Sequence record: MG252615.1
Strand: one strand, 5' to 3'
DNA length: 41,317 bases
Source of the DNA: Escherichia phage vB_EcoS_HSE2
Shown here: in pieces, positions 5,367-23,175 of the stretch
Numbering within the stretch: the first letter of the stretch is position 1
How the letters are laid out: each line of letters starts with the position of its first letter
The notes under the pieces: model-generated
Database searches by the model: none
The model's input: the letters and a program-made list of their open reading frames with translations, nothing else
What the model was told of the DNA's origin: nothing
Position numbers and translations under genes: made by a program

Positions 5367-5651
5367 CTAACTATAATAGCTCGCTATTAGGGTGTCAACC
5401 TGTTTAAACGAACCGACGACAAAAACATTCGCACCACGTTTACGCATCCGCTCGTGCTCGCGTAACTGGTGCGGGTCAGGCTTCGTGTTTTCGTCTTTCT
5501 TAACCTCGACGAACCAGACGATGCCGCCTGGGAGAATTGCCAGCAGGTCGGGGGCGCCGGAACGTCCTTCGTAGGAGAGCTTACGAACGAGGCCGCCAAT
5601 GGCCTCGAATCGCTCTTTTGCGTATTTCTGAATCTTGCCTTCCGGGGTCAT
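5367..5651 (-). CDS. VRR-NUC domain nuclease (PD-(D/E)XK fold)
   Basis: GAPDLL...VWFVEVKK motif pattern, about 94 aa. Confidence 0.6.
   Translation of the reverse strand: MTPEGKIQKYAKERFEAIGGLVRKLSYEGRSGAPDLLAILPGGIVWFVEVKKDENTKPDPHQLREHERMRKRGANVFVVGSFKQVDTLIASYYS
5370..5398 (-). promoter_or_regulatory. Sigma70-type early promoter with palindromic operator in spacer
   Basis: Minus strand TTGACA, 17-nt spacer, TATAGT; spacer carries AATAGC-TC-GCTATT (plus-strand 5375..5388). Confidence 0.6.
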
Positions 5652-9150: not shown

Positions 9151-9179
9151 ACTATAATAGCTTACTATTCAGGTGTCAA
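9151..9179 (-). promoter_or_regulatory. Sigma70-type early promoter with palindromic operator in spacer
   Basis: TTGACA, 17-nt spacer, TATAGT on minus strand; spacer has AATAGC-TT-ACTATT (9156..9169). Confidence 0.6.
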
Positions 9180-11757: not shown

Positions 11758-11786
11758 ACTATAATAGCGAACTATTCACATGTCAA
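11758..11786 (-). promoter_or_regulatory. Sigma70-type early promoter with palindromic operator in spacer
   Basis: TTGACA, 17-nt spacer, TATAGT; spacer has AATAGC-GA-ACTATT (11763..11776). Confidence 0.6.
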
Positions 11787-14380: not shown

Positions 14381-14614
14381 TTATTCCAGGTCTTCTAAAG
14401 TGGCTGCCATTCCGCGAACTTCTGCAACGGCGCTATATTTCCCGCCAACGTTTTTCACGACACCGGATTTAACCAGCACCTTTAACGACCCCTCAATAAT
14501 GGCGGAACTATAGTACTTAAAATAACTACGACGCAAGTCGATAACGCTGCACGACCCTTTTTTACGCGTCAACGAAACGACCGCCGTAAATACGCGTAAC
14601 TGGAACTCGGTCAT
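14381..14614 (-). CDS. Small winged-helix-like protein (77 aa) ending in TLEDLE
   Basis: ORF between HTH gene and primase; C-terminal motif shared with two other replication proteins. Confidence 0.45.
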   Translation of the reverse strand: MTEFQLRVFTAVVSLTRKKGSCSVIDLRRSYFKYYSSAIIEGSLKVLVKSGVVKNVGGKYSAVAEVRGMAATLEDLE

Positions 14615-14781
14615 TTTACATTCTCCTTAATCCACGCCTCTACTTTCTCCGGGTCAAATGTACCTGGCTGCCGGCGCCCCATAATGCGGATACAACAATC
14701 CGGGAACTTACCGCTCTTTAACCAGTTATTCAGCGTGCGACGAGTAACCCCGATACGCTCTGCTACCTCGTTCTGTGTCAT
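14611..14781 (-). CDS. Small HTH DNA-binding protein (AlpA/excisionase-like fold), first gene of the primase operon
   Basis: MTQNEVAERIGVTRRTLNNWLKSGKFP; GAGG Shine-Dalgarno 8 nt before ATG at 14781. Confidence 0.55.
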   Translation of the reverse strand: MTQNEVAERIGVTRRTLNNWLKSGKFPDCCIRIMGRRQPGTFDPEKVEAWIKENVK

Positions 14782-14813
14782 TCTCAAACCCTCATTATCA
14801 GTTAACGAAACCA

Positions 14814-14842
14814 AGTATACATTGCGAATAATGGGAAATCAA
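14814..14842 (-). promoter_or_regulatory. Sigma70-type promoter for the primase operon
   Basis: Minus strand TTGATT, 17 nt, TATACT. Confidence 0.5.
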
Positions 14843-14857
14843 ACATAATTGCACCTA

Positions 14858-14886
14858 TTGACATTATGAAAATCTTCGTTTAAGAT
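14858..14886 (+). promoter_or_regulatory. Sigma70-type promoter pointing into the noncoding region
   Basis: TTGACA, 17 nt, TAAGAT; divergent from the 14814..14842 promoter. Confidence 0.45.
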
Positions 14887-15129
14887 GCTTCTATATCTTA
14901 GTTACTTTGATTCCTGTTCACCTTGTAAGAATGTTTAACCCGTGCGTCAAGCAAAGGGTTAAACACAGGCTTACTGAACATGAGAATTATCGTAACTTTC
15001 CTTCCTAAGTATCTCCGGTTGCCCTGGGCAAGCTCTATTCTCATCGGCGGCATATCTCTTAAGTATCTGATTTTCTTAATGTGCCGTAGATTCGCAACCG
15101 TAAAAATGTAACGATTATTGGGCAGGCTT

Positions 15130-15251: not shown

Positions 15252-15370
15252 TCACTTATCGAGGCGAGGCAGGGAGCCAACCTTTAATAAGGTCAGTAGC
15301 GGCGACGAGCATACGAAGAGTCGATAAGCCCGGTAAGCAGAACCTAAATTAACTAAGAGAGAAAAGCTGG

Positions 15371-15688
15371 ATGAAAAAGTTAATCGCAGCAGTAGCAATT
15401 TTATTTTCAGTAAACGCAACGGCAGTGGATATGGATGCATGTGAAGCATTCGCGGATATTACTAAATGGGTTGGAGTGCAGCGTGATATGGGGATTAGTC
15501 AGTCTACTATTTATATGGAACTGCTGGATATTACCTCGAAGAAGAACACAAGCAAAGAAGTTAAAAAACTTCTTAATACAACCGCTTTTAGCGCGACAAA
15601 AATAGCATTTGCGTTGAGCGATAAGTCGCCAGGGGAACTTTATACATGGACATACAACGAATGTGTAAAACACAACGGCAGCGAATAA
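15371..15688 (+). CDS. Secreted/periplasmic protein with signal peptide (105 aa)
   Basis: N-terminal MKKLIAAVAILFSVNATA signal-like sequence; first gene after the middle promoter. Confidence 0.5.
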   Translation: MKKLIAAVAILFSVNATAVDMDACEAFADITKWVGVQRDMGISQSTIYMELLDITSKKNTSKEVKKLLNTTAFSATKIAFALSDKSPGELYTWTYNECVKHNGSE

Positions 15689-15727
15689 TGATGCTCGTGC
15701 CGACGACTCTGAGGGAGGTTGCCGTGA

Positions 15728-15919
15728 ATGAGAATTCGAATAACTGATGTCGATTATATGCGCCTGCGCGATGGCGACTATTTGTCGCTTAGTTACTGGG
15801 GCGTTGCCGTAGGGGATGAATTTAATGTCACCCGCGCCTATCCAGATATGTTCATTATCAAATGCAACGCTGGGTATGTAGTTGTGTACCCAAGTGAATG
15901 CGAAGTTCTGGAGGACTAA
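15728..15919 (+). CDS. Hypothetical protein (63 aa)
   Basis: ORF with GGGAGG upstream. Confidence 0.4.
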   Translation: MRIRITDVDYMRLRDGDYLSLSYWGVAVGDEFNVTRAYPDMFIIKCNAGYVVVYPSECEVLED

Positions 15920-15922
15920 GTT

Positions 15923-16066
15923 ATGAGAGAAGCATTCGAACGGTGGGCTGTCGTCGAGGGTCTGCCGGTTAACAAAGGTTCAAAGAAAGAGTACCTGAAC
16001 GTTAAGACGCGTCTGGCGTGGCGGGCGTGGAAAGCTGGTGTGCAAGCTGTGATGAATACGAGGTGA
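15923..16066 (+). CDS. Hypothetical protein (47 aa)
   Basis: Hand-translated ORF in the same operon. Confidence 0.3.
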   Translation: MREAFERWAVVEGLPVNKGSKKEYLNVKTRLAWRAWKAGVQAVMNTR

Positions 16067-16069
16067 TTT

Positions 16070-16270
16070 ATGAGTAAGTGGATTAAGTGTAGTGAGCGGA
16101 TGCCCGCTCCTTTCTCTCATGTACTTGTGACTGATGGGGGAGAGGTTGAGATTAAATGGTTCGATGATGATTCGGATGAGTGGGATAGTTGGGATGAATT
16201 CAACTCTGTCATAGACAACGAGGATATAACGCACTGGAGGAAATTGCCTAAACCGCCGAAACTGGTGTAA
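16070..16270 (+). CDS. Hypothetical protein, possibly DUF551-like (66 aa)
   Basis: Acidic Trp-rich C-terminal region with THWRKLP. Confidence 0.4.
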   Translation: MSKWIKCSERMPAPFSHVLVTDGGEVEIKWFDDDSDEWDSWDEFNSVIDNEDITHWRKLPKPPKLV

Positions 16271-16405
16271 CAGGTCAATAGGTTACTATTTGACTGAGTG
16301 ACTTACGCTGCTACACAGCAGCGTACAACTTTAGATTAGTGTCGTCAAAAAGCGACACTTTCACCGAACGCAACAATAGAAGCGATTATTGCAGGAGATG
16401 CAACA

Positions 16406-16576
16406 ATGAAACTGAATGACATCGTGACCTGGGCCGGTAGAAACGGAGAAAAGCGATTCGGGCTTATTGTTGCGTCAGACGGCAACAAGTACCGTGTTAT
16501 GCGATGGCGTCAGTGGGCGCGACGCCCGAGGTACTACTGGATTCGCAGTGAACGATTATCTTTAAAACACCAATAA
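16406..16576 (+). CDS. Hypothetical basic protein (56 aa)
   Basis: Hand-translated ORF preceded by GGAGA. Confidence 0.35.
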   Translation: MKLNDIVTWAGRNGEKRFGLIVASDGNKYRVMRWRQWARRPRYYWIRSERLSLKHQ

Positions 16577-16583
16577 AATTTAC

Positions 16584-16612
16584 TTGCACACTAAGATAGA
16601 ATAGGCTACTAT
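16584..16612 (+). promoter_or_regulatory. Middle-class promoter with operator palindrome
   Basis: TTGCAC, 17-nt spacer, TACTAT; AATAGG-CT-ACTATT (16600..16613). Confidence 0.6.
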
Positions 16613-16643
16613 TCATTTACACAAACGAGAAGAGAGACAGAAG

Positions 16644-16811
16644 ATGAAAGCAGTAACTAAAGATGAGTTTTTCAGCACAGTAGAAGGTCTTATGTATCAC
16701 ATGGTTATTAATGCGGGTACGCCAGAGTCTATCTACATAGATAGCGGTAATAATCTTGTCGCTAAAGCAACATGGGGTTACCCGGAAACTTTGTATGAGG
16801 TTGCGCAATGA
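16644..16811 (+). CDS. Hypothetical protein (55 aa)
   Basis: Hand-translated ORF; ATGA overlap to next gene. Confidence 0.35.
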   Translation: MKAVTKDEFFSTVEGLMYHMVINAGTPESIYIDSGNNLVAKATWGYPETLYEVAQ

Positions 16812-17035
16812 CCCCCGCAAAAGCACGTGCGCTGTTACGCCGCAAGGGGATTCTCGATGAGGTGGACATCCTTGTAGAGAGATACGGCATCCACATGATA
16901 GGTCGCCAGTCGAAAGGTGATATGCGTTGGATGGCGGGTATCCCTGGTACGCCAGGCGTGTCATACGGCGACACATTAACCCATGCGGTCCATACTTACA
17001 TTATTGAGTCGGTGTTAGGAGAAACCAATGAGTAA
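16808..17035 (+). CDS. Hypothetical protein (75 aa)
   Basis: ORF track. Confidence 0.4.
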   Translation: MTPAKARALLRRKGILDEVDILVERYGIHMIGRQSKGDMRWMAGIPGTPGVSYGDTLTHAVHTYIIESVLGETNE

Positions 17036-17384
17036 CAAAAACGAAGTATTCAAGTACCTGATTGACCGGCTACGGCAGCAGGTAATTAACAACCCATACA
17101 AACAACAGTGTGAAGACCTGGCGCATGAGGTGCAGTCACTTAAGAATCAGTTACGTGATGCTTCGGTGCAGATTAAGGAGCTACATCTGGCGCTGGTTAA
17201 GGCTGCCGGTGATGTAGAGGCTTACAAACTTATCCGCAAGGGTGGGTACGTCAATGGCGGTCGGCGATATGTAGTAGGTGAGCACGGGCTGGAGCAATCC
17301 GGTTGCCAAATAGGTGAGCATGATTGGGTGTTAGACGCCGACGAGGATTATTTTGTGTGCCGCAGATGTGGGGAAACGACATGA
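17028..17384 (+). CDS. Hypothetical coiled-coil protein with C-terminal CxxC zinc ribbon (118 aa)
   Basis: Heptad-like region and CRRCGE. Confidence 0.4.
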   Translation: MSNKNEVFKYLIDRLRQQVINNPYKQQCEDLAHEVQSLKNQLRDASVQIKELHLALVKAAGDVEAYKLIRKGGYVNGGRRYVVGEHGLEQSGCQIGEHDWVLDADEDYFVCRRCGETT

Positions 17385-17584
17385 CCAGCATCTTATTTAT
17401 ATGGGTACTGTCCGCGGGCCAGATGCAACTCGCGGCAGCAGAAACGTTTTACTCGATGGAGGCGTGCCAGTCAGCGGCACGTGCCGCAGAGAACGCGCAC
17501 TTTCTGTTTCAGGGTGATAAGCCCAACGATTCAGAGGTACGCGCTATCTGCTCACTTAAGCGACTTGGTAAACAGGAGAAGTGA
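17381..17584 (+). CDS. Hypothetical small protein with hydrophobic N-terminus (67 aa)
   Basis: ATG at 17381 overlaps upstream stop (ATGA). Confidence 0.35.
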   Translation: MTSILFIWVLSAGQMQLAAAETFYSMEACQSAARAAENAHFLFQGDKPNDSEVRAICSLKRLGKQEK

Positions 17585-17586
17585 TT

Positions 17587-17841
17587 ATGGTACAGAGATA
17601 TAACGCTTCATATAACGACTATTATGAAAACGATGCCGGTGAGTTTGTAAGTTATGAAGACTATGCGAAACTCGAAGCAGATTTTAAGGCGTACAAAGCC
17701 TCTGCTTACATGGTTGCAGAGCAGTATGCGGGGGTGATTAAGGAACTCGAAGCCGAGTTACAGAAATACAAAGACCAGTTCCCGGATTACGTCGAGTGCG
17801 CGAACTGTGGGTCAGTTACACATGTGGAAGAGGTGGAGTGA
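17587..17841 (+). CDS. Small Zn-ribbon protein, paralog A (MVQRY...YEDYAKLEA)
   Basis: AGGAGAA Shine-Dalgarno; shares N-terminal motif and a 15-nt start-region repeat with the next gene. Confidence 0.45.
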   Translation: MVQRYNASYNDYYENDAGEFVSYEDYAKLEADFKAYKASAYMVAEQYAGVIKELEAELQKYKDQFPDYVECANCGSVTHVEEVE

Positions 17842-18044
17842 TGGTACAGAGATATGAAAACGACCACGGCGATATGTTTCAGGCCACGGAAGGTGATTTT
17901 GTCCGCTATGAAGATTACGCAAAACTTGAGGCCGCCGTTATCGCATTACTCGTGGATATAAATCGACGCTACCCGGGTGAAGGATTTAAGTGCCCGTTAA
18001 TACTTAAACTTGCGGAGATTGTGGAACATGAGCCTCGCAACTGA
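17841..18044 (+). CDS. Small protein, paralog B (MVQRY...YEDYAKLEA)
   Basis: Starts with the same ATGGTACAGAGATAT as paralog A. Confidence 0.45.
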   Translation: MVQRYENDHGDMFQATEGDFVRYEDYAKLEAAVIALLVDINRRYPGEGFKCPLILKLAEIVEHEPRN

Positions 18045-18309
18045 CATCCTGAAACGAAGCGGCCTTGCGCCGCTGTCGCCTAAAGTTAAGACGCGAGCGC
18101 GTAACGCAACTTACAATGAACTGGCAGAACGGCGTAAAGCTGTCCGCGCCTGTGGATTCCAGAACGGGAAGGCCGTGAATCTCGGTGAGTTTAAAACACA
18201 GGAACGCGCAGCTATCGCTAATCGGCTATTTAATTACTGGAAATCGCTGGGGTACGATGATATTCCAACGAAACCGCAGAGACGACAATACATCTGGAGA
18301 CATAAATAA
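18028..18309 (+). CDS. Hypothetical basic protein
   Basis: ORF track; start site uncertain (18010 or 18028). Confidence 0.35.
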   Translation: MSLATDILKRSGLAPLSPKVKTRARNATYNELAERRKAVRACGFQNGKAVNLGEFKTQERAAIANRLFNYWKSLGYDDIPTKPQRRQYIWRHK

Positions 18310-18384
18310 ACCGTTATTAAGATAATTCTTACACGTGGTATCCTCCAGTTACCGCATACTTAATACGCACCTGGAGGATTCATC

Positions 18385-18693: not shown

Positions 18694-18958
18694 GTTATTC
18701 TGGTTCGGCGGTATGCTGGCAATCGGAGGCACATCGCTGTTTAATGTGTACCACCCCAGCGTGGACGACGGGCTGTTTGGTCGGGTGCTCTATATCCTGA
18801 CCGCTATCGTCTGCGTCGCCGGATGCATCCACCTGTTACAGGGCAGCATGTCCCCGACGTTGCCTGAGACATTAATCACATTAGTTGCGCTGCGTCAGAT
18901 TCGCCAGGCGTGGCTGTCGTATGGAGGACATAAGCGTGTCTCGAAATATTTCAGATAA
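18686..18958 (+). CDS. Putative holin/antiholin membrane protein (two hydrophobic segments)
   Basis: GAGGGGG Shine-Dalgarno; hydrophobic; overlaps both neighbours. Confidence 0.45.
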   Translation: MNELFWFGGMLAIGGTSLFNVYHPSVDDGLFGRVLYILTAIVCVAGCIHLLQGSMSPTLPETLITLVALRQIRQAWLSYGGHKRVSKYFR

Positions 18959-19421
18959 TGGATTGCATTTTACCGCTGCGTTCGAGGGGTTCCGTGGAAC
19001 CGCGTATCGCGCGACACCGAACGAGAAGTACCTGACTATAGGCTATGGTCACTACGGACCTGACGTAACGCCCGGCAAGACCATCACCCCAGGGCAGGGT
19101 CTCCTGCTACTGAATCGCGATATGGCTAAGGCTGTAGCTGCGGTTGACGCTGCGGCGCACCATTCACTGACACAGGCGCAGTTCGACGCTGTTTGCGACC
19201 TGGTGTATAACGCGGGCGCCGGTGTGATTGCAGCTACCACCGGCACGGGTAAGGCACTGCGTTCTGGTGATACTGCAACACTGCGGGCTAAGCTGGCACT
19301 GTTCATCAACCAGAACGGCAAACCACTACTTGGCCTACGTCGCCGTACAGCCGGGCGGCTGGCATTGTTCAACGGTAAACCGTGGCAAGAGGCGGAGGCT
19401 ATTGGGAGGGCCGTTAAATGA
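18936..19421 (+). CDS. Endolysin, T4-lysozyme-like (glycoside hydrolase family 24)
   Basis: Catalytic region FEGFRG..Y...T.GYGH characteristic of phage lysozymes; GGAGGA before GTG 18936. Confidence 0.8.
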   Translation: MSRNISDNGLHFTAAFEGFRGTAYRATPNEKYLTIGYGHYGPDVTPGKTITPGQGLLLLNRDMAKAVAAVDAAAHHSLTQAQFDAVCDLVYNAGAGVIAATTGTGKALRSGDTATLRAKLALFINQNGKPLLGLRRRTAGRLALFNGKPWQEAEAIGRAVK

Positions 19422-19498
19422 CAGAGTTTGACTTCATTTTCCTGGCTATTGGAGCTGGTGCGATTTGGGGTGTGATTGACGCTCTCCGTAAAGGTTGA
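19418..19498 (+). CDS. Tiny hydrophobic peptide (26 aa) overlapping endolysin stop
   Basis: Verified by hand: MTEFDFIFLAIGAGAIWGVIDALRKG; ATGA overlap. Confidence 0.3.
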   Translation: MTEFDFIFLAIGAGAIWGVIDALRKG

Positions 19499-19562
19499 CA
19501 CCTAAGACTAATCCGACGATACTTAAATCACCTCCTGTTCCATCCCTCTGCTCTCCAGTTTT

Positions 19563-19594
19563 ATCCCGGCCCTGACCCAGCCGGGATTTTTTTT
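19563..19594 (+). terminator. Rho-independent terminator after the lysis genes
   Basis: Stem ATCCCGGC/GCCGGGAT followed by an 8-T run. Confidence 0.75.
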
Positions 19595-19616
19595 ATCTAT
19601 TTTCTGTAATGACTAG

Positions 19617-19645
19617 TTGACTATTACCTACGACCCTACTATATT
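19617..19645 (+). promoter_or_regulatory. Sigma70-type promoter for the small-gene chain
   Basis: TTGACT, 17 nt, TATATT. Confidence 0.55.
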
Positions 19646-19678
19646 TACTTCATAGACAACGAGAACGGAGTAGAGAAG

Positions 19679-19828
19679 ATGAAAATCACAGATATCGAAG
19701 CATTCAAAGACGCACAACTGATGGCTCGCATCGCCGTTAGTAACCTGAGCAACAGTATTCCAGCGGACGCGTTCTGGTTCGCTGCGATGCAGACACTAAA
19801 AGCAGCTTATGCAGGAGAGAAGAAATGA
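19679..19828 (+). CDS. Hypothetical small protein (49 aa)
   Basis: Codon-by-codon check; ATGA coupling to next ORF. Confidence 0.4.
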   Translation: MKITDIEAFKDAQLMARIAVSNLSNSIPADAFWFAAMQTLKAAYAGEKK

Positions 19829-19977
19829 CAGTCTATGTCGTAGAAGGGCGTAACGAATATGAAGACCCCGAGGTATTGGGTGTGTTCGGTGCCGAGAAAT
19901 CGGCGAAGCACTTTGTTGACATGGAACAGGGCACTTACGACTTTTTCTCAGTTACAGAATGGGAGGTACAACAATGA
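19825..19977 (+). CDS. Hypothetical small protein (50 aa)
   Basis: Codon-by-codon check; ATGA coupling. Confidence 0.4.
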   Translation: MTVYVVEGRNEYEDPEVLGVFGAEKSAKHFVDMEQGTYDFFSVTEWEVQQ

Positions 19978-20132
19978 GTGAACACGGTGAAGTAAGTCAA
20001 CCATTACGAGTAGGGCGTAAAGTCAGTCACACCCCGTTCCCGACACGCGAGGAACTGATGAAACGTAACAGTTTCCCCGGGCCGGACAAGAACAAGTATC
20101 TCAATCGCATGTGGGGAGAGCGTAAAGAATGA
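19974..20132 (+). CDS. Hypothetical small protein (52 aa)
   Basis: ATGA coupling. Confidence 0.4.
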   Translation: MSEHGEVSQPLRVGRKVSHTPFPTREELMKRNSFPGPDKNKYLNRMWGERKE

Positions 20133-20302
20133 CTAACAACGAATATGAGAAAGCATGCGTCGAATCCGCGACCGGTGAATCTGAAATAGCGTGGATTGAC
20201 GCCAACATCGAGCACTACCTACGGCAAGTAGACATCCTTATGGAACGACGCCGTGAACTGATTAACCGCATCAACCTGAACAAAGGTGATACTAATGCCT
20301 AA
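20129..20302 (+). CDS. Hypothetical small protein (57 aa)
   Basis: ATGA coupling. Confidence 0.4.
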   Translation: MTNNEYEKACVESATGESEIAWIDANIEHYLRQVDILMERRRELINRINLNKGDTNA

Positions 20303-20534
20303 AATCACAATCGCGTCACTCGAGCGCCGTATTATGGTGCTTGAGTCAGAGAAACAGACGTTAGGCGGGCAACTGTCAATTAACGGTGAGTTTCAACTGG
20401 AGGCGTTTAAGTTGTTGCTTGAGCGCATGAAAGCGGACGAAAAGCCTTGCGTACATGACTACTACCTACATGTGGTTGGTGGACTACGTAGAGCAACGTG
20501 CATTAAGTGCGGTGAAACGTATGGGGTCGCCTGA
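20295..20534 (+). CDS. Hypothetical coiled-coil protein with CxxC...C.KC zinc ribbon (79 aa)
   Basis: ORF track; overlapping start. Confidence 0.4.
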   Translation: MPKITIASLERRIMVLESEKQTLGGQLSINGEFQLEAFKLLLERMKADEKPCVHDYYLHVVGGLRRATCIKCGETYGVA

Positions 20535-20703
20535 GCCAGTAGTTATCGATGGCGTCCTGTGGAAACCTTACTCGGTTAACCACATCGACGCCGACGGGAA
20601 GAAGTTCAGCTTCTACATTTTTGCAATTAGCCGTGAGCACGCCGCCTGTGTGGTAGATGATATACGAGAAACGGCGTGGCTTGGTGATGAGATAGTGGGG
20701 TGA
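20521..20703 (+). CDS. Hypothetical small protein (60 aa)
   Basis: ORF track; start chosen at internal ATG. Confidence 0.35.
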   Translation: MGSPEPVVIDGVLWKPYSVNHIDADGKKFSFYIFAISREHAACVVDDIRETAWLGDEIVG

Positions 20704-20705
20704 GT

Positions 20706-20876
20706 ATGTTCAGTGACATTAACGCAGCAATCGAAGAAGCAATCTGGCGTCGCTACAACGGCGAGCAGCAACGGCACTTTTGCCTTGTGCAACGTGGGAA
20801 CATGATTGCCGTAGTGCAGGACCGCGATAACAAATATCCGAATGCGATGTGGACAACGAGGAATTTCTTAGGATGA
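20706..20876 (+). CDS. Hypothetical small protein (56 aa)
   Basis: Hand-translated; ATGA coupling to next. Confidence 0.35.
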   Translation: MFSDINAAIEEAIWRRYNGEQQRHFCLVQRGNMIAVVQDRDNKYPNAMWTTRNFLG

Positions 20877-21109
20877 TTACCAGCATTCCGAACCTGATTA
20901 AAGAATTTGGCACGATGGCGGAGACATGCCGACAAACCGGCATCAACGAAATGACGATTGCGAAGTACAGCAAAGACGTTGACTGCGAGCGCCACGTAAT
21001 TTATAACAACCGTCTTATGACGCACGTTAAGACAAGCCCGGTGTTATTCACGCGCCGGGGCATCACTAAAACTGAGCAACGTATTGCTAAAGAGGAGAGT
21101 GGGGAATGA
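20873..21109 (+). CDS. Hypothetical protein with HTH-like segment (78 aa)
   Basis: AETCRQTGINEMTIAKYSKD resembles a helix-turn-helix. Confidence 0.4.
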   Translation: MITSIPNLIKEFGTMAETCRQTGINEMTIAKYSKDVDCERHVIYNNRLMTHVKTSPVLFTRRGITKTEQRIAKEESGE

Positions 21110-21255
21110 TTGAATTTGATGATGTTTTATTTGAGGAATACCGCGGAACGGTGTTTTTGACTGTGATGTACGGTGTTTACTCAAAGTCCTTTAACGGGTT
21201 TTCGAAAGCAGATTGCATAAATCAATTACTGCAATGGGTGGTAAGCCGAAAATAG
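21106..21255 (+). CDS. Hypothetical small protein (49 aa)
   Basis: Hand-translated; ATGA coupling; followed by terminator. Confidence 0.35.
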   Translation: MIEFDDVLFEEYRGTVFLTVMYGVYSKSFNGFSKADCINQLLQWVVSRK

Positions 21256-21264
21256 CCACACCAC

Positions 21265-21287
21265 AAGCCCTCTACGGAGGGCTTTTC
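21265..21287 (+). terminator. Rho-independent terminator
   Basis: Stem AAGCCCTC/GAGGGCTT, loop TACG, then TTTT. Confidence 0.65.
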
Positions 21288-21382
21288 TGTACATCCCGCC
21301 CAATTCCCTTATATAATCCCTTTAGACGCGTAGGGCGCGTCTGGTGCGCTCTGATGGTCAGACGCATATGCAAGGGGATTCT

Positions 21383-21928
21383 ATGAAGCTGAAACTTAAG
21401 CAGCCATCGCCAGAGGTGGTGCAAGCTGCACATGAAGAAGCTGTTAGCGCAAACCGTCGCCGTAAACGACCGCGCGGCAAACAGAGTCTTTATCAATCAT
21501 CCCGTAATTCCGCCGCGTTGTGGGACCCGGGCTATTGCGATGCATTAATCAAGTTCTTCGACCGCACGTCATGGGAACTTGTGCCTACATCTAAGGGTGA
21601 CGAACGTCCGCTGATTCAGGATAAACCGCCGTCACTGGCCCGCTTCGCCTTGCACATCGGCGTCACTATCCCGATTATTAAGCTGTGGCTGCGTGAGATT
21701 CCCGCATTTGCCGAAGCCTATGAAACAGCGCAGGCACTTGAAGAGGCATACTTCACCGAGACAGGCGCGGCGGGTATCTCTGCTACGTTTGCCGCAGCTA
21801 AGCTAGGCCTTAGCAAAGAGAAACCAGTTGAATCCACCGAAGAAACAGCACCGACTGAGATTGTTTTCAGTGTTGCAGAGCCTGTAGGTAAAATCGTAAC
21901 AACGAATATGGGCGAGGTAGAGGAATGA
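21383..21928 (+). CDS. Putative terminase small subunit
   Basis: Immediately upstream of, and overlapping, the large terminase; AAGGGGA Shine-Dalgarno; basic N-terminal region. Confidence 0.5.
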   Translation: MKLKLKQPSPEVVQAAHEEAVSANRRRKRPRGKQSLYQSSRNSAALWDPGYCDALIKFFDRTSWELVPTSKGDERPLIQDKPPSLARFALHIGVTIPIIKLWLREIPAFAEAYETAQALEEAYFTETGAAGISATFAAAKLGLSKEKPVESTEETAPTEIVFSVAEPVGKIVTTNMGEVEE

Positions 21929-23175
21929 GTATTCAGCTATCGGCCCCGCAGGCATTGTTCCTGAATTGTGATAACAAGTACAAGGCCTACGTCGGCGGCT
22001 TCGGAAGTGGCAAGACATTTGTTGGCTGCCTTGACCTGCTTACGTTTATGCTCAAGCACCCAAGTACGCGCCTGGGCTACTTCGGCCCGACCTATCCCGC
22101 CATCCGTGACATCTTCTACCCAACATTCGAGGAAGCGGCTAACCTGCTCGGCCTTGATGTGCTGGTTAAATCCGGCGACAAAGAGGTTGTGGTTACGCGC
22201 GGTAAGACTGTGCTCGGGACCGTTATCTGCCGTTCGATGGATAACCCGGGGTCTATCGTTGGTTTCAAAATCGCTGCGGCAGTCGTCGATGAGCTGGACG
22301 TATTGAGCCGTGAAAAAGCTGAACTGGCGTGGAACAAAATTGTGGCCCGTATGCGTCTGGTTATCCCCGGCGTAACTAACCACATCTCTGTCACCACGAC
22401 ACCGGAAGGGTTCAAGTTCGTCTATGCCAAGTTCAAAGAGAACCCGACGCCGAGTTACTCGATGGTGCAGGCTTCTACACACGAGAACGCGCGATTCCTG
22501 CCGCCTGACTACATTAGCTCACTGACCGAGACTTACCCCGCGCAACTGATTAACGCGTACCTGAACGGTGAGTTCGTTAACCTGACATCCGGCAGCGTGT
22601 ATTATGCGTATGACCGTCGCAAGCACCGCAGCAAAGAGACAATTCAACCGGGCGATACACTGTACATCGGGCAGGACTTCAACGTTACGAAGAACGCCAG
22701 CGCCGTGTATGTGCAACGTAAAGACGGCTGGCACGCGGTGGCAGAACTGAAAGGCCTGTTCGATACGCCGGACACCGTGCGCGTAATTACAGAGAAGTGG
22801 AAGTCACAAGGCCACCGCATCGTCGTTTACCCGGATGCCAGCGGCAAGAACCGCAAGACTAACTCGGCGTCAATCTCTGATATTGCGTTACTACAGCAGG
22901 CAGGGTTTGATGTTCGCGCTAAATCTGCCAACCCCCCGGTTAAAGACCGTGTTTTAGCGGTGAATACCGCGCTGGAAAAAGGTAAGCTGTGGATTAACGA
23001 CCACTTATGCCCTGAGATAGCGAAGACGCTGGAACAGCAGGCATACGACGATAACGGAGAGCCAGCTAAAGACGGCGTCATTGACCATATGGCGGATGCT
23101 CTCGGCTATCCTGTAGTTTACGAGATGCCGGTGGTTAAACCAGTAATCAACATCCCGGTGACTTTCGCACTTTAA
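21925..23175 (+). CDS. terL: Terminase large subunit
   Basis: Walker A GGFGSGKT, Walker B VVDELD, C-terminal nuclease-like acidic residues. Confidence 0.85.
   Translation: MSIQLSAPQALFLNCDNKYKAYVGGFGSGKTFVGCLDLLTFMLKHPSTRLGYFGPTYPAIRDIFYPTFEEAANLLGLDVLVKSGDKEVVVTRGKTVLGTVICRSMDNPGSIVGFKIAAAVVDELDVLSREKAELAWNKIVARMRLVIPGVTNHISVTTTPEGFKFVYAKFKENPTPSYSMVQASTHENARFLPPDYISSLTETYPAQLINAYLNGEFVNLTSGSVYYAYDRRKHRSKETIQPGDTLYIGQDFNVTKNASAVYVQRKDGWHAVAELKGLFDTPDTVRVITEKWKSQGHRIVVYPDASGKNRKTNSASISDIALLQQAGFDVRAKSANPPVKDRVLAVNTALEKGKLWINDHLCPEIAKTLEQQAYDDNGEPAKDGVIDHMADALGYPVVYEMPVVKPVINIPVTFAL

Follow-up and report, generated by a model that had tools for sequence, protein, structure and literature searches.

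Nine small genes (O1 to O9), which follow one another on the plus strand between the lysis cassette and the small terminase gene terS of Escherichia phage vB_EcoS_HSE2 (MG252615.1; the whole stretch of 41,317 nucleotides that was analysed is referred to as the window), were found to constitute an operon that is conserved across a whole subfamily of virulent enterobacterial phages, the Guernseyvirinae. This operon is read here as a nin-like accessory operon, meaning the Guernseyvirinae counterpart of the lambdoid 'nin/ea' gene chains, which would be autonomous and transcribed by the host RNA polymerase, and a probability of about 0.55 is given to this reading. The preliminary description of this DNA had claimed nine consecutive small plus-strand open reading frames (ORFs) without structural function between a promoter and a terminator, and all nine were found where it had placed them, documenting the array to be a discrete accessory operon of non-structural small genes.

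The phage is an E. coli siphophage of the genus Kagunavirus (Guernseyvirinae), whereby region 19400-21500 of the window shares, along its entire length, 98.6% identity with Escherichia phage BUCT823 and matches 371 phage records, nearly all of them Kagunavirus or Jerseyvirus (Guernseyvirinae) phages of E. coli and Salmonella. Kagunavirus-type phages are strictly lytic small siphoviruses in published accounts (PMC11990801, PMC12919940), and no lysogeny genes were found in the phage of the window. When 5,426 complete E. coli genomes were searched with the array by blastn, no match was obtained, i.e., no prophage copy at the DNA level. The comparison set comprised 50 IMG/VR loci fetched through TerS and five GenBank loci, and the architecture counts given below refer to the 39 loci that possess both anchors, namely the endolysin gene and terS. 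The array and its borders consist of the following features:

19563-19595, plus strand: upstream intrinsic terminator (8-bp GC-rich stem, 9-nt loop, U8 tail; folding free energy (dG) -13.8 kcal/mol, z -2.8)
19617-19645, plus strand: predicted array promoter of the sigma-70 type (TTGACT-17-TATATT, 10 of 12 consensus positions in a promoter scan)
19679-19828, plus strand: O1, 49 aa, with a GGAG Shine-Dalgarno motif
19825-19977, plus strand: O2, 50 aa, DUF7336
19974-20132, plus strand: O3, 52 aa, DUF2737
20129-20302, plus strand: O4, 57 aa, NinZ-like
20295-20534, plus strand: O5, 79 aa, two-module protein with a zinc-ribbon-like C-terminal module
20521-20703, plus strand: O6, 60 aa, beta-beta-beta-alpha fold in its AlphaFold2 (AF2) model
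20706-20876, plus strand: O7, 56 aa, one helix and a beta-hairpin in its AF2 model
20873-21109, plus strand: O8, 78 aa, NinH-like helix-turn-helix (HTH) protein
21106-21255, plus strand: O9, 49 aa, rare cassette of low GC content
21265-21287, plus strand: predicted intrinsic array terminator (8-bp stem, dG -15.2 kcal/mol, z -4.2)
21288-21317, plus strand: predicted terS promoter (TGTACA-18-TATAAT), beginning one base past the array terminator

Start codons were chosen by Shine-Dalgarno motifs and by N-termini conserved in relatives, and the nine ORFs span 19679-21255 with a coding density of 99.9%. Five junctions are of the ATGA type (O1/O2, O2/O3, O3/O4, O7/O8 and O8/O9), O4/O5 and O5/O6 overlap by 8 nt and 14 nt, respectively, and a 2-nt gap (TGAGTATG) separates O6 from O7; in the relatives, 241 of 317 junctions overlap. 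Longer starts (ATG 19959, GTG 20286, ATG 20455, GTG 20700 and GTG 20849) were rejected, as the relatives keep shorter N-termini and the extensions run into the preceding gene. The size range of 49-82 aa proposed earlier consequently holds for its lower bound only, since the 82 aa derive from the longest possible ORFs (GTG 20286, ATG 20455), which homologues do not support, the supported maximum being 79 aa. Minus-strand ORFs within the array (e.g., 20719-20973 and 20753-21025) were likewise rejected, as the synonymous-biased substitutions sit in the plus-strand frames, and Rfam and tRNA scans of the window gave no match.

ORFs as short as these, most of which are unannotated, could be chance or decaying frames devoid of function. 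The ratios of non-synonymous to synonymous differences (pN/pS), obtained by the Nei-Gojobori method from orthologues compared with the window sequence, speak against this: they amount to 0.12 (O1), 0.19 (O3), 0.29 (O4), 0.21 (O5), 0.10 (O6), 0.03 (O7, the most constrained gene of the array), 0.08 (O8) and 0.38 (O9, n=3), documenting purifying selection on eight of the nine genes, with O2 having no close orthologue in the set. Further points against meaningless frames are synteny and start contexts that are conserved over dozens of loci, a match of each of the nine ORFs to a PHROG family (each labelled 'unknown function'), Pfam families above threshold for two of them (DUF7336 for O2 and DUF2737 for O3) and confident AF2 models for another two (O6 and O7). 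Judged by the substitution pattern, which ranges from 0.03 to 0.38, the chance-ORF explanation is effectively refuted, and its probability is regarded as negligible.

The array is reasoned to be an insulated transcription unit because it possesses its own promoter and its own terminator, is preceded by the terminator of the lysis operon and is followed by a separate terS promoter. All 39 loci agree in both hexamers of the array promoter and in their 17-nt spacing but differ in the sequence of the spacer; this is the conservation pattern expected of a working promoter, so that the element named in the preliminary description and recovered by the promoter scan is predicted to be active, with transcription presumably starting near 19652. 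The terminator named there was also recovered: its sequence AAGCCCTC-TACG-GAGGGCTT, followed by TTCTGT, forms a stable fold with a short U tract (UUUUCUGU), and in Jerseyvirus-like loci its stem is kept by a compensatory change from CCCTC/GAGGG to CCCGC/GCGGG. On the 5' side, two holin genes and the endolysin gene (18885-19421) flank the array, and the terminator at 19563-19595, which ends this lysis operon just 5' of the array promoter, represents the left boundary of the unit. On the 3' side, terS (21344/21383-21928) and then terL (21925-23175) follow.

Three near-consensus promoters (TTGACA-17-TATAGT, 11 of 12 positions) were identified elsewhere on the minus strand (11758-11786, 9151-9179 and 5370-5398), where they precede minus-strand blocks taken as replication modules. 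The spacers of all three carry an operator-like palindrome, AATAG(T/C)nnnGCTATT (AATAGnnnGCTATT), which suggests one regulator for all of them. The array promoter does not possess this palindrome, and its regulation is therefore suggested to be separate. In one relative (L030) a promoter similar to those of the replication modules was observed inside the array region. Downstream of the array, the terS leader (21318-21382, plus strand) contains nested inverted repeats built on AGACGC/GCGTCT (21324-21330/21336-21342 and 21337-21343/21359-21365) and folds at -28.8 kcal/mol (z -3.1). The leader is kept across Kagunavirus and Jerseyvirus-like loci and may control translation or transcription or else belong to the packaging recognition region.

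Comparison of the 39 loci revealed a constant gene order in which O1, O4 and O8 are present in all 39, O3 in 38, O6 in 33, O5 in 31, O7 in 30 and O9 in four, O2 being found in the window only. The fixed backbone is hence formed by O1, O3 (DUF2737), O4 (NinZ-like) and O8 (NinH-like HTH), with O5-O6-O7 sitting between O4 and O8 in most Kagunavirus-like loci, to which they are largely confined. About 30 further small-ORF families were found in the 38 relatives, where they locate to four slots: (i) before O1, (ii) between O1 and O3, (iii) between O6 and O7 and (iv) after O8. O2 and O9 are both rare cassettes, occupying the second and the fourth of these slots, respectively. A Pfam scan of 20 accessory cassettes from the relatives recognised only DUF3850/ASCH and a second DUF7336 allele. 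As a consequence, the array is to be described as a fixed backbone with exchangeable cassettes and not as a uniformly hypervariable island. At the start of the array, three relatives (L001, L035 and L037) possess either two tandem O1 paralogues (65 aa and 49 aa) or forms of O1 that are longer at the N-terminus (61-82 aa), i.e., the first gene of the operon is itself duplicated or remodelled in some relatives.

Two members of the array have homologues among the lambdoid nin genes, namely O8 (NinH) and O4 (NinZ). Lambda NinH was reported to be a dimeric, Fis-like DNA-binding and DNA-bending protein which is toxic when overproduced (PMC7166090). Like lambda NinH, with which it aligns over 51-52 residues, O8 possesses the HTH and the first beta strand, both of which are covered by the hhalign alignment with NinH (probability 95.7%, E 9e-9, 52 columns); BLASTP identities amount to 33% over 51 aa with lambda NinH (E 1e-9) and to 31% with P22 NinH (E 5e-8). 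The dimerisation histidines H45 and H55 of lambda NinH correspond to the invariant H41 and H51 of O8. Unlike lambda NinH, O8 scores below the gathering threshold of the Pfam NinH family (PF06322; 23.4 bits versus a cut-off of 29.8, E 5.5e-5), carries a basic C-terminal extension of about 25 aa and is fused to a NinZ-like segment in some Jerseyviruses. The two proteins differ further in the DNA-contact residues, as N18, R30, T32, R34 and K35 of lambda NinH correspond to T14, E26, T28, A30 and K31 of O8, whereby only the threonine and the lysine are kept. Here, all 30 aligned family members have E26, and the exchanges R30 to E, R34 to A and N18 to T were found throughout the Guernseyvirinae family.

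O4 is a probably helical, acidic protein (isoelectric point (pI) 4.8) that aligns with P22 NinZ over its full length (59 columns, 37% identity, E 2e-9). Its gene is present in 39 of 39 loci, where its alleles are often only 43-66% identical while neighbouring genes are more than 90% identical. Both O4 and O8 match phrog_268, O4 its first and O8 its second half, because the two are fused in Jerseyviruses: a joined O4 plus O8 query revealed one continuous ORF in many Salmonella Jerseyviruses, among them SETP13, SHWT1, UPWr_S4, SGPC, S104, horsemountain and SE-W109. In SETP13 this is gp67 (118 aa; positions 1501-1857 of locus L063), encoded directly 3' of the DUF2737 gene, which shares 54% identity with O4 (residues 1-48) and 62% with O8 (residue 44 onward). 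Its junction (...RRELI|TSIP...) looks like the result of an in-frame deletion between short similar sequences, by which the intervening DNA would have been removed. In P22, ninH and ninZ are adjacent and overlap. The fusion establishes a Rosetta-stone link between both proteins and is taken as evidence that O4 and O8 work together.

The kinship of O8 with a Fis-like DNA bender also gave rise to another explanation, namely that the array is a packaging accessory module in which O8, maybe with its neighbours, helps the small terminase to recognise or bend the downstream pac region. The array is invariably found immediately 5' of terS and terL, and the inverted repeats of the terS leader are conserved, as this explanation would have it. 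Against it stand the conserved array terminator, the separate terS promoter and the variable cassettes between O8 and terS, as do the absence of the key DNA-contact arginines from O8 and the fact that lambda and P22 encode their dispensable NinH and NinZ homologues far away from the terminase genes. A role in packaging is thus considered very unlikely.

A third backbone gene ties the array to lambdoid phages by another route. O3 is a basic, proline-rich protein with a DUF2737 domain (PF10930; E 8e-10, 38.9 bits versus a cut-off of 25), and its C-terminal half is 58% identical to P22 orf56 over 31 aa (E 2e-12). HkaI of HK620 and a protein of Sf6 were identified as further relatives, with identities of 58-70% in the C-terminal 31 residues across the P22, HK620 and Sf6 proteins, whereas the N-terminal 20 residues of O3 are unrelated to them. 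In P22 and HK620, the DUF2737 gene is a PL-operon gene and the direct neighbour of abc2, an anti-RecBCD gene; O3, in contrast, has neither abc2 nor a recombinase gene as neighbour. When P22 was searched by tblastn, orf56 and NinZ were the only matches.

O7 and O9 have their informative homologues in virulent phages. Those of O7 (AF2 model with a predicted local distance difference test score (pLDDT) of 86.9) are 45-49% identical and are encoded in N4-like Gamaleyavirus phages, in a left-terminal block between two genes annotated as RNAP1 subunits; this block we take to be an early region. O9 occurs in 27 phage records and has, outside the Guernseyvirinae, distant relatives only in RB49-like T-even phages, where a homologue with 37% identity is encoded between dda and dexA, near modB and srd. 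Because of these sole distant outside relatives and of its foreign base composition (38% GC and 44% at third codon positions (GC3), versus 50.9% GC for the genome), O9 looks like a recent horizontal acquisition. With tightly packed ORFs of about 50-80 aa and with the O7 and O9 homologues residing inside N4-like and RB49-like clusters, the array resembles the early clusters of virulent phages (T7 class I, T4 dda-dexA-modB and the N4-like left end), from which it differs in that none of their experimentally proven host-takeover proteins is homologous to any of the nine and that its timing is inferred.

For O5 (phrog_9023 and phrog_10200), a family alignment revealed a conserved N-terminal module of about 47 aa, which is probably a coiled coil, followed by swappable C-terminal modules. 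The C-terminal module present in the window contains C51, H53, C69 and C72 (C-x-H...C-x2-C), which are conserved in nearly all relatives carrying it and let the module appear zinc-ribbon-like. The preliminary description had mentioned CxxC zinc ribbons or HTH-like segments in several ORFs; such features are confined to O5 and to O8 with its HTH, hence 'several' was an overstatement. O6 is acidic (pI 4.6), with an AF2 model (pLDDT 80.5) of three strands and one helix, and its family is a scattered one, comprising stand-alone proteins some 60 aa long from phages of Cronobacter, Pectobacterium, Serratia and Pseudomonas. Larger 'homologues' of O6 (599 aa, 722 aa and others) that came from a search of 1.84 billion proteins were rejected, as they are repetitive proteins with no credible domain in common. 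The AF2 models of O6 and O7, which derive from shallow alignments as the homologue search gave almost only near-identical proteins, had no significant match among solved structures in the PDB, and sequence searches of the PDB with O5-O8 gave no match below E 0.1. O1 (phrog_2180) is predicted by eye to be helical and, with 634 phage records, is essentially confined to the Guernseyvirinae. O2 is acidic (pI 4.1), possesses a DUF7336 domain (PF24024; E 8e-11, 42 bits versus a cut-off of 25) and was found in only eight phage records, being 98% identical in Bas70, Bas71 and Bas75, while a different DUF7336 allele occupies the slot between O1 and O3 in locus L046.

Five members (O3, O4, O7, O8 and O9) possess informative homologues elsewhere, in each case in early operons, which fits an early, host-directed role of the array. 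Together with the promoter, which matches 10 of 12 consensus positions, and the lack of the AATAGnnnGCTATT palindrome, this indirectly favours an early and unregulated expression. The mechanism suggested for a nin-like accessory operon assumes that one polycistronic mRNA is made by the unmodified host polymerase from the start of infection and that ribosomes re-initiate at the ATGA-type junctions, by which the proteins would be made together. The products would be small cytoplasmic proteins acting by binding, whereby O8 together with O4 may form a DNA-binding module of a diverged NinH/Fis type, by which DNA or host transcription is remodelled, and the remaining products may bind host or phage proteins. 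As for the lambda nin genes, the gene set would probably be dispensable on a permissive laboratory host and advantageous in nature.

The lambda nin region is delayed-early and can be deleted without loss of plaque formation (PMC10695390), and 'a chain of interlinked genes' is the title phrase of Kroger and Hobom 1982 as it stands in the reference list of the same paper. Like the lambdoid nin region (ninB-ninI of lambda, ninA-ninZ of P22), the array consists of small, non-structural accessory genes on the same strand with overlapping stop and start codons. Several points weigh against reading it as nin-like. True nin regions lie between the replication genes and Q/23 within the N-antiterminated PR operon, whereas the array lies between the lysis cassette, with its endolysin gene, and terS, possesses its own sigma-70 promoter and terminator and has no Q-like gene adjacent. 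No homologues of the recombination proteins NinB/Orf or NinG/Rap were found among the nine ORFs with Pfam and PHROG, NinC and NinI counterparts are likewise lacking, only four of the nine genes have a counterpart in lambdoid phages or in other phages of known gene function, and the phage is virulent. By sequence, O1, O2, O5, O6 and O7, i.e., five of nine, have no relative of known function, and for O6 and O7 this also holds by fold. Fis-like DNA binding by O8 is not assured, given the replacement of the contact residues R30, R34 and N18 by E, A and T. The sole Kagunavirus RNA-seq study (K1B4) places the NinH homologue in a 'middle' class together with replication and structural genes, although its classes, spanning 5-120 min as compared to a latent period of 30 min and with one early gene named, are barely informative on timing. 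Finally, no dispensability data for Guernseyvirinae phages were found in the literature. Differing in position, in regulation and in most of its genes, the array is not a nin region in the strict sense.

Its position immediately 3' of the holin-holin-endolysin genes could also mean that the array extends the lysis cassette by genes for lysis timing or superinfection exclusion, and by inspection the last slot of some relatives contains cassettes resembling membrane proteins (families f10, f16 and f22). Within the nine proteins of the window, no transmembrane-like segment was identified, with the highest Kyte-Doolittle mean over 17 residues being 1.15; moreover, a strong terminator stands between the lysis genes and the array, and the homologues elsewhere belong to early and not to lysis operons. 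This explanation is hence regarded as highly improbable. Within the lysis operon itself, a gene for a hydrophobic peptide of 26 aa (MTEFDFIFLAIGAGAIWGVIDALRKG) was observed at 19418-19498 (plus strand), which overlaps the endolysin stop by ATGA and precedes the terminator of the lysis operon. Two IMG/VR loci contain a version of 30 aa (family f34), and a short ORF is annotated at the same position in Bas75. The peptide may act as a small membrane lysis factor; the annotations of these phages contain no spanin genes.

The preliminary description had gone further and labelled the array a candidate host-takeover or anti-defence island, meaning that most or all of the nine proteins would be expressed first and inhibit host immunity (restriction-modification (RM), CRISPR or abortive infection) or host machinery. 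The promoter-to-terminator accessory operon, the early-operon homologues of five members and the four swap slots with about 30 further families in 38 relatives all stand on the side of that label. So do the small size of the proteins, several of which are acidic (O2, O4 and O6), the promoter of the array's own with its near-consensus hexamers, the divergence of O4 alleles between conserved neighbours, the swappable C-terminal modules of O5, the foreign base composition of O9 and the location of O7 and O9 homologues beside host-takeover genes in the early regions of N4-like and T-even phages. The O4 orthologue of phage EcoPhCCP1 has in addition been proposed as a putative anti-CRISPR protein on the basis of borderline machine-learning scores only (AcrPred 0.49; PMC12919940), a proposal against which the NinZ homology of O4 and its fusion to a NinH-like domain speak.

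The remote homology search called for earlier ties O8 to NinH, O4 to NinZ and O3 to orf56 and gave no link to a known anti-defence protein. PADLOC and NCBIfam scans of all nine proteins yielded nothing meaningful, and their PHROG matches are all of 'unknown function'. The authors of the BASEL collection ran AntiDefenseFinder on all their phages; Bas70-76, which possess near-identical arrays, appear in the phage list only, and the AntiDefenseFinder sheet of the S2 table apparently contains no row for them, as judged by their absence from its text copy. The BASEL Kagunaviruses, three of which carry O2, were reported to be highly RM-sensitive and variably sensitive to Old, making an effective anti-restriction function unlikely. 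Typical anti-defence loci are patchy, whereas in the array conservation, synteny and strong purifying selection hold for seven of the nine genes, and two backbone genes, O4 and O8, are homologues of NinZ and NinH, which are widespread in temperate lambdoid phages. Like acr operons with an HTH-type Aca regulator, the array comprises small genes behind a strong promoter, one HTH protein (O8) and cassettes varying among relatives; unlike in these, no member was matched to a known anti-defence family by the PADLOC, NCBIfam and PHROG scans, the HTH protein and most of its partners are core genes under purifying selection, and the phage group is reported to be restriction-sensitive. A functional label of anti-defence or host shut-off is thus unproven and, for restriction at least, disfavoured; as an explanation for most or all of the genes it is considered unlikely, and such a role is most plausible, as a possibility, for the rare cassettes O2 and O9.

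A related and likewise doubtful proposal is that at least one array gene is the first member of a new inhibitor family, acting on host factors or on immunity, and that the operon would be expressed first, as a counter-defence unit whose cassettes are exchangeable. Candidates would be O6, an acidic protein of beta-beta-beta-alpha topology in the size and topology class of T7 Gp2, and O3, whose relatives are encoded beside abc2; O2 and O9 as rare cassettes and O5 with its swappable C-terminal heads are further candidates. If this were true, the O4-O8 pair would represent an effector-plus-regulator module and not a nucleoid protein.

Upstream of the lysis genes, a longer run of about a dozen small ORFs (47-118 aa) was observed at about 15370-18310 on the plus strand, between a divergent promoter region (about 14810-14890), which an HTH gene on the minus strand (14611-14814) adjoins, and the holin genes. 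This run is at least as good a candidate for an early or host-interaction region as the array.

The array reveals no new kind of system. The nin-like reading of the array matters in that phages of the Guernseyvirinae (Kagunavirus, Jerseyvirus) are common in therapy and biocontrol of E. coli and Salmonella, with small genomes that make them an attractive chassis, and the analysis provides a map of deletable or swappable parts for them: a self-contained unit of 1.6 kb with a four-gene core (O1, DUF2737, NinZ-like and NinH-like) and defined cassette slots. With the O4::O8 fusion, NinH-type proteins, the biological role of which is not settled, gain a partner that can be tested, and the analysis links a virulent phage lineage to the lambdoid nin/ea gene pool.

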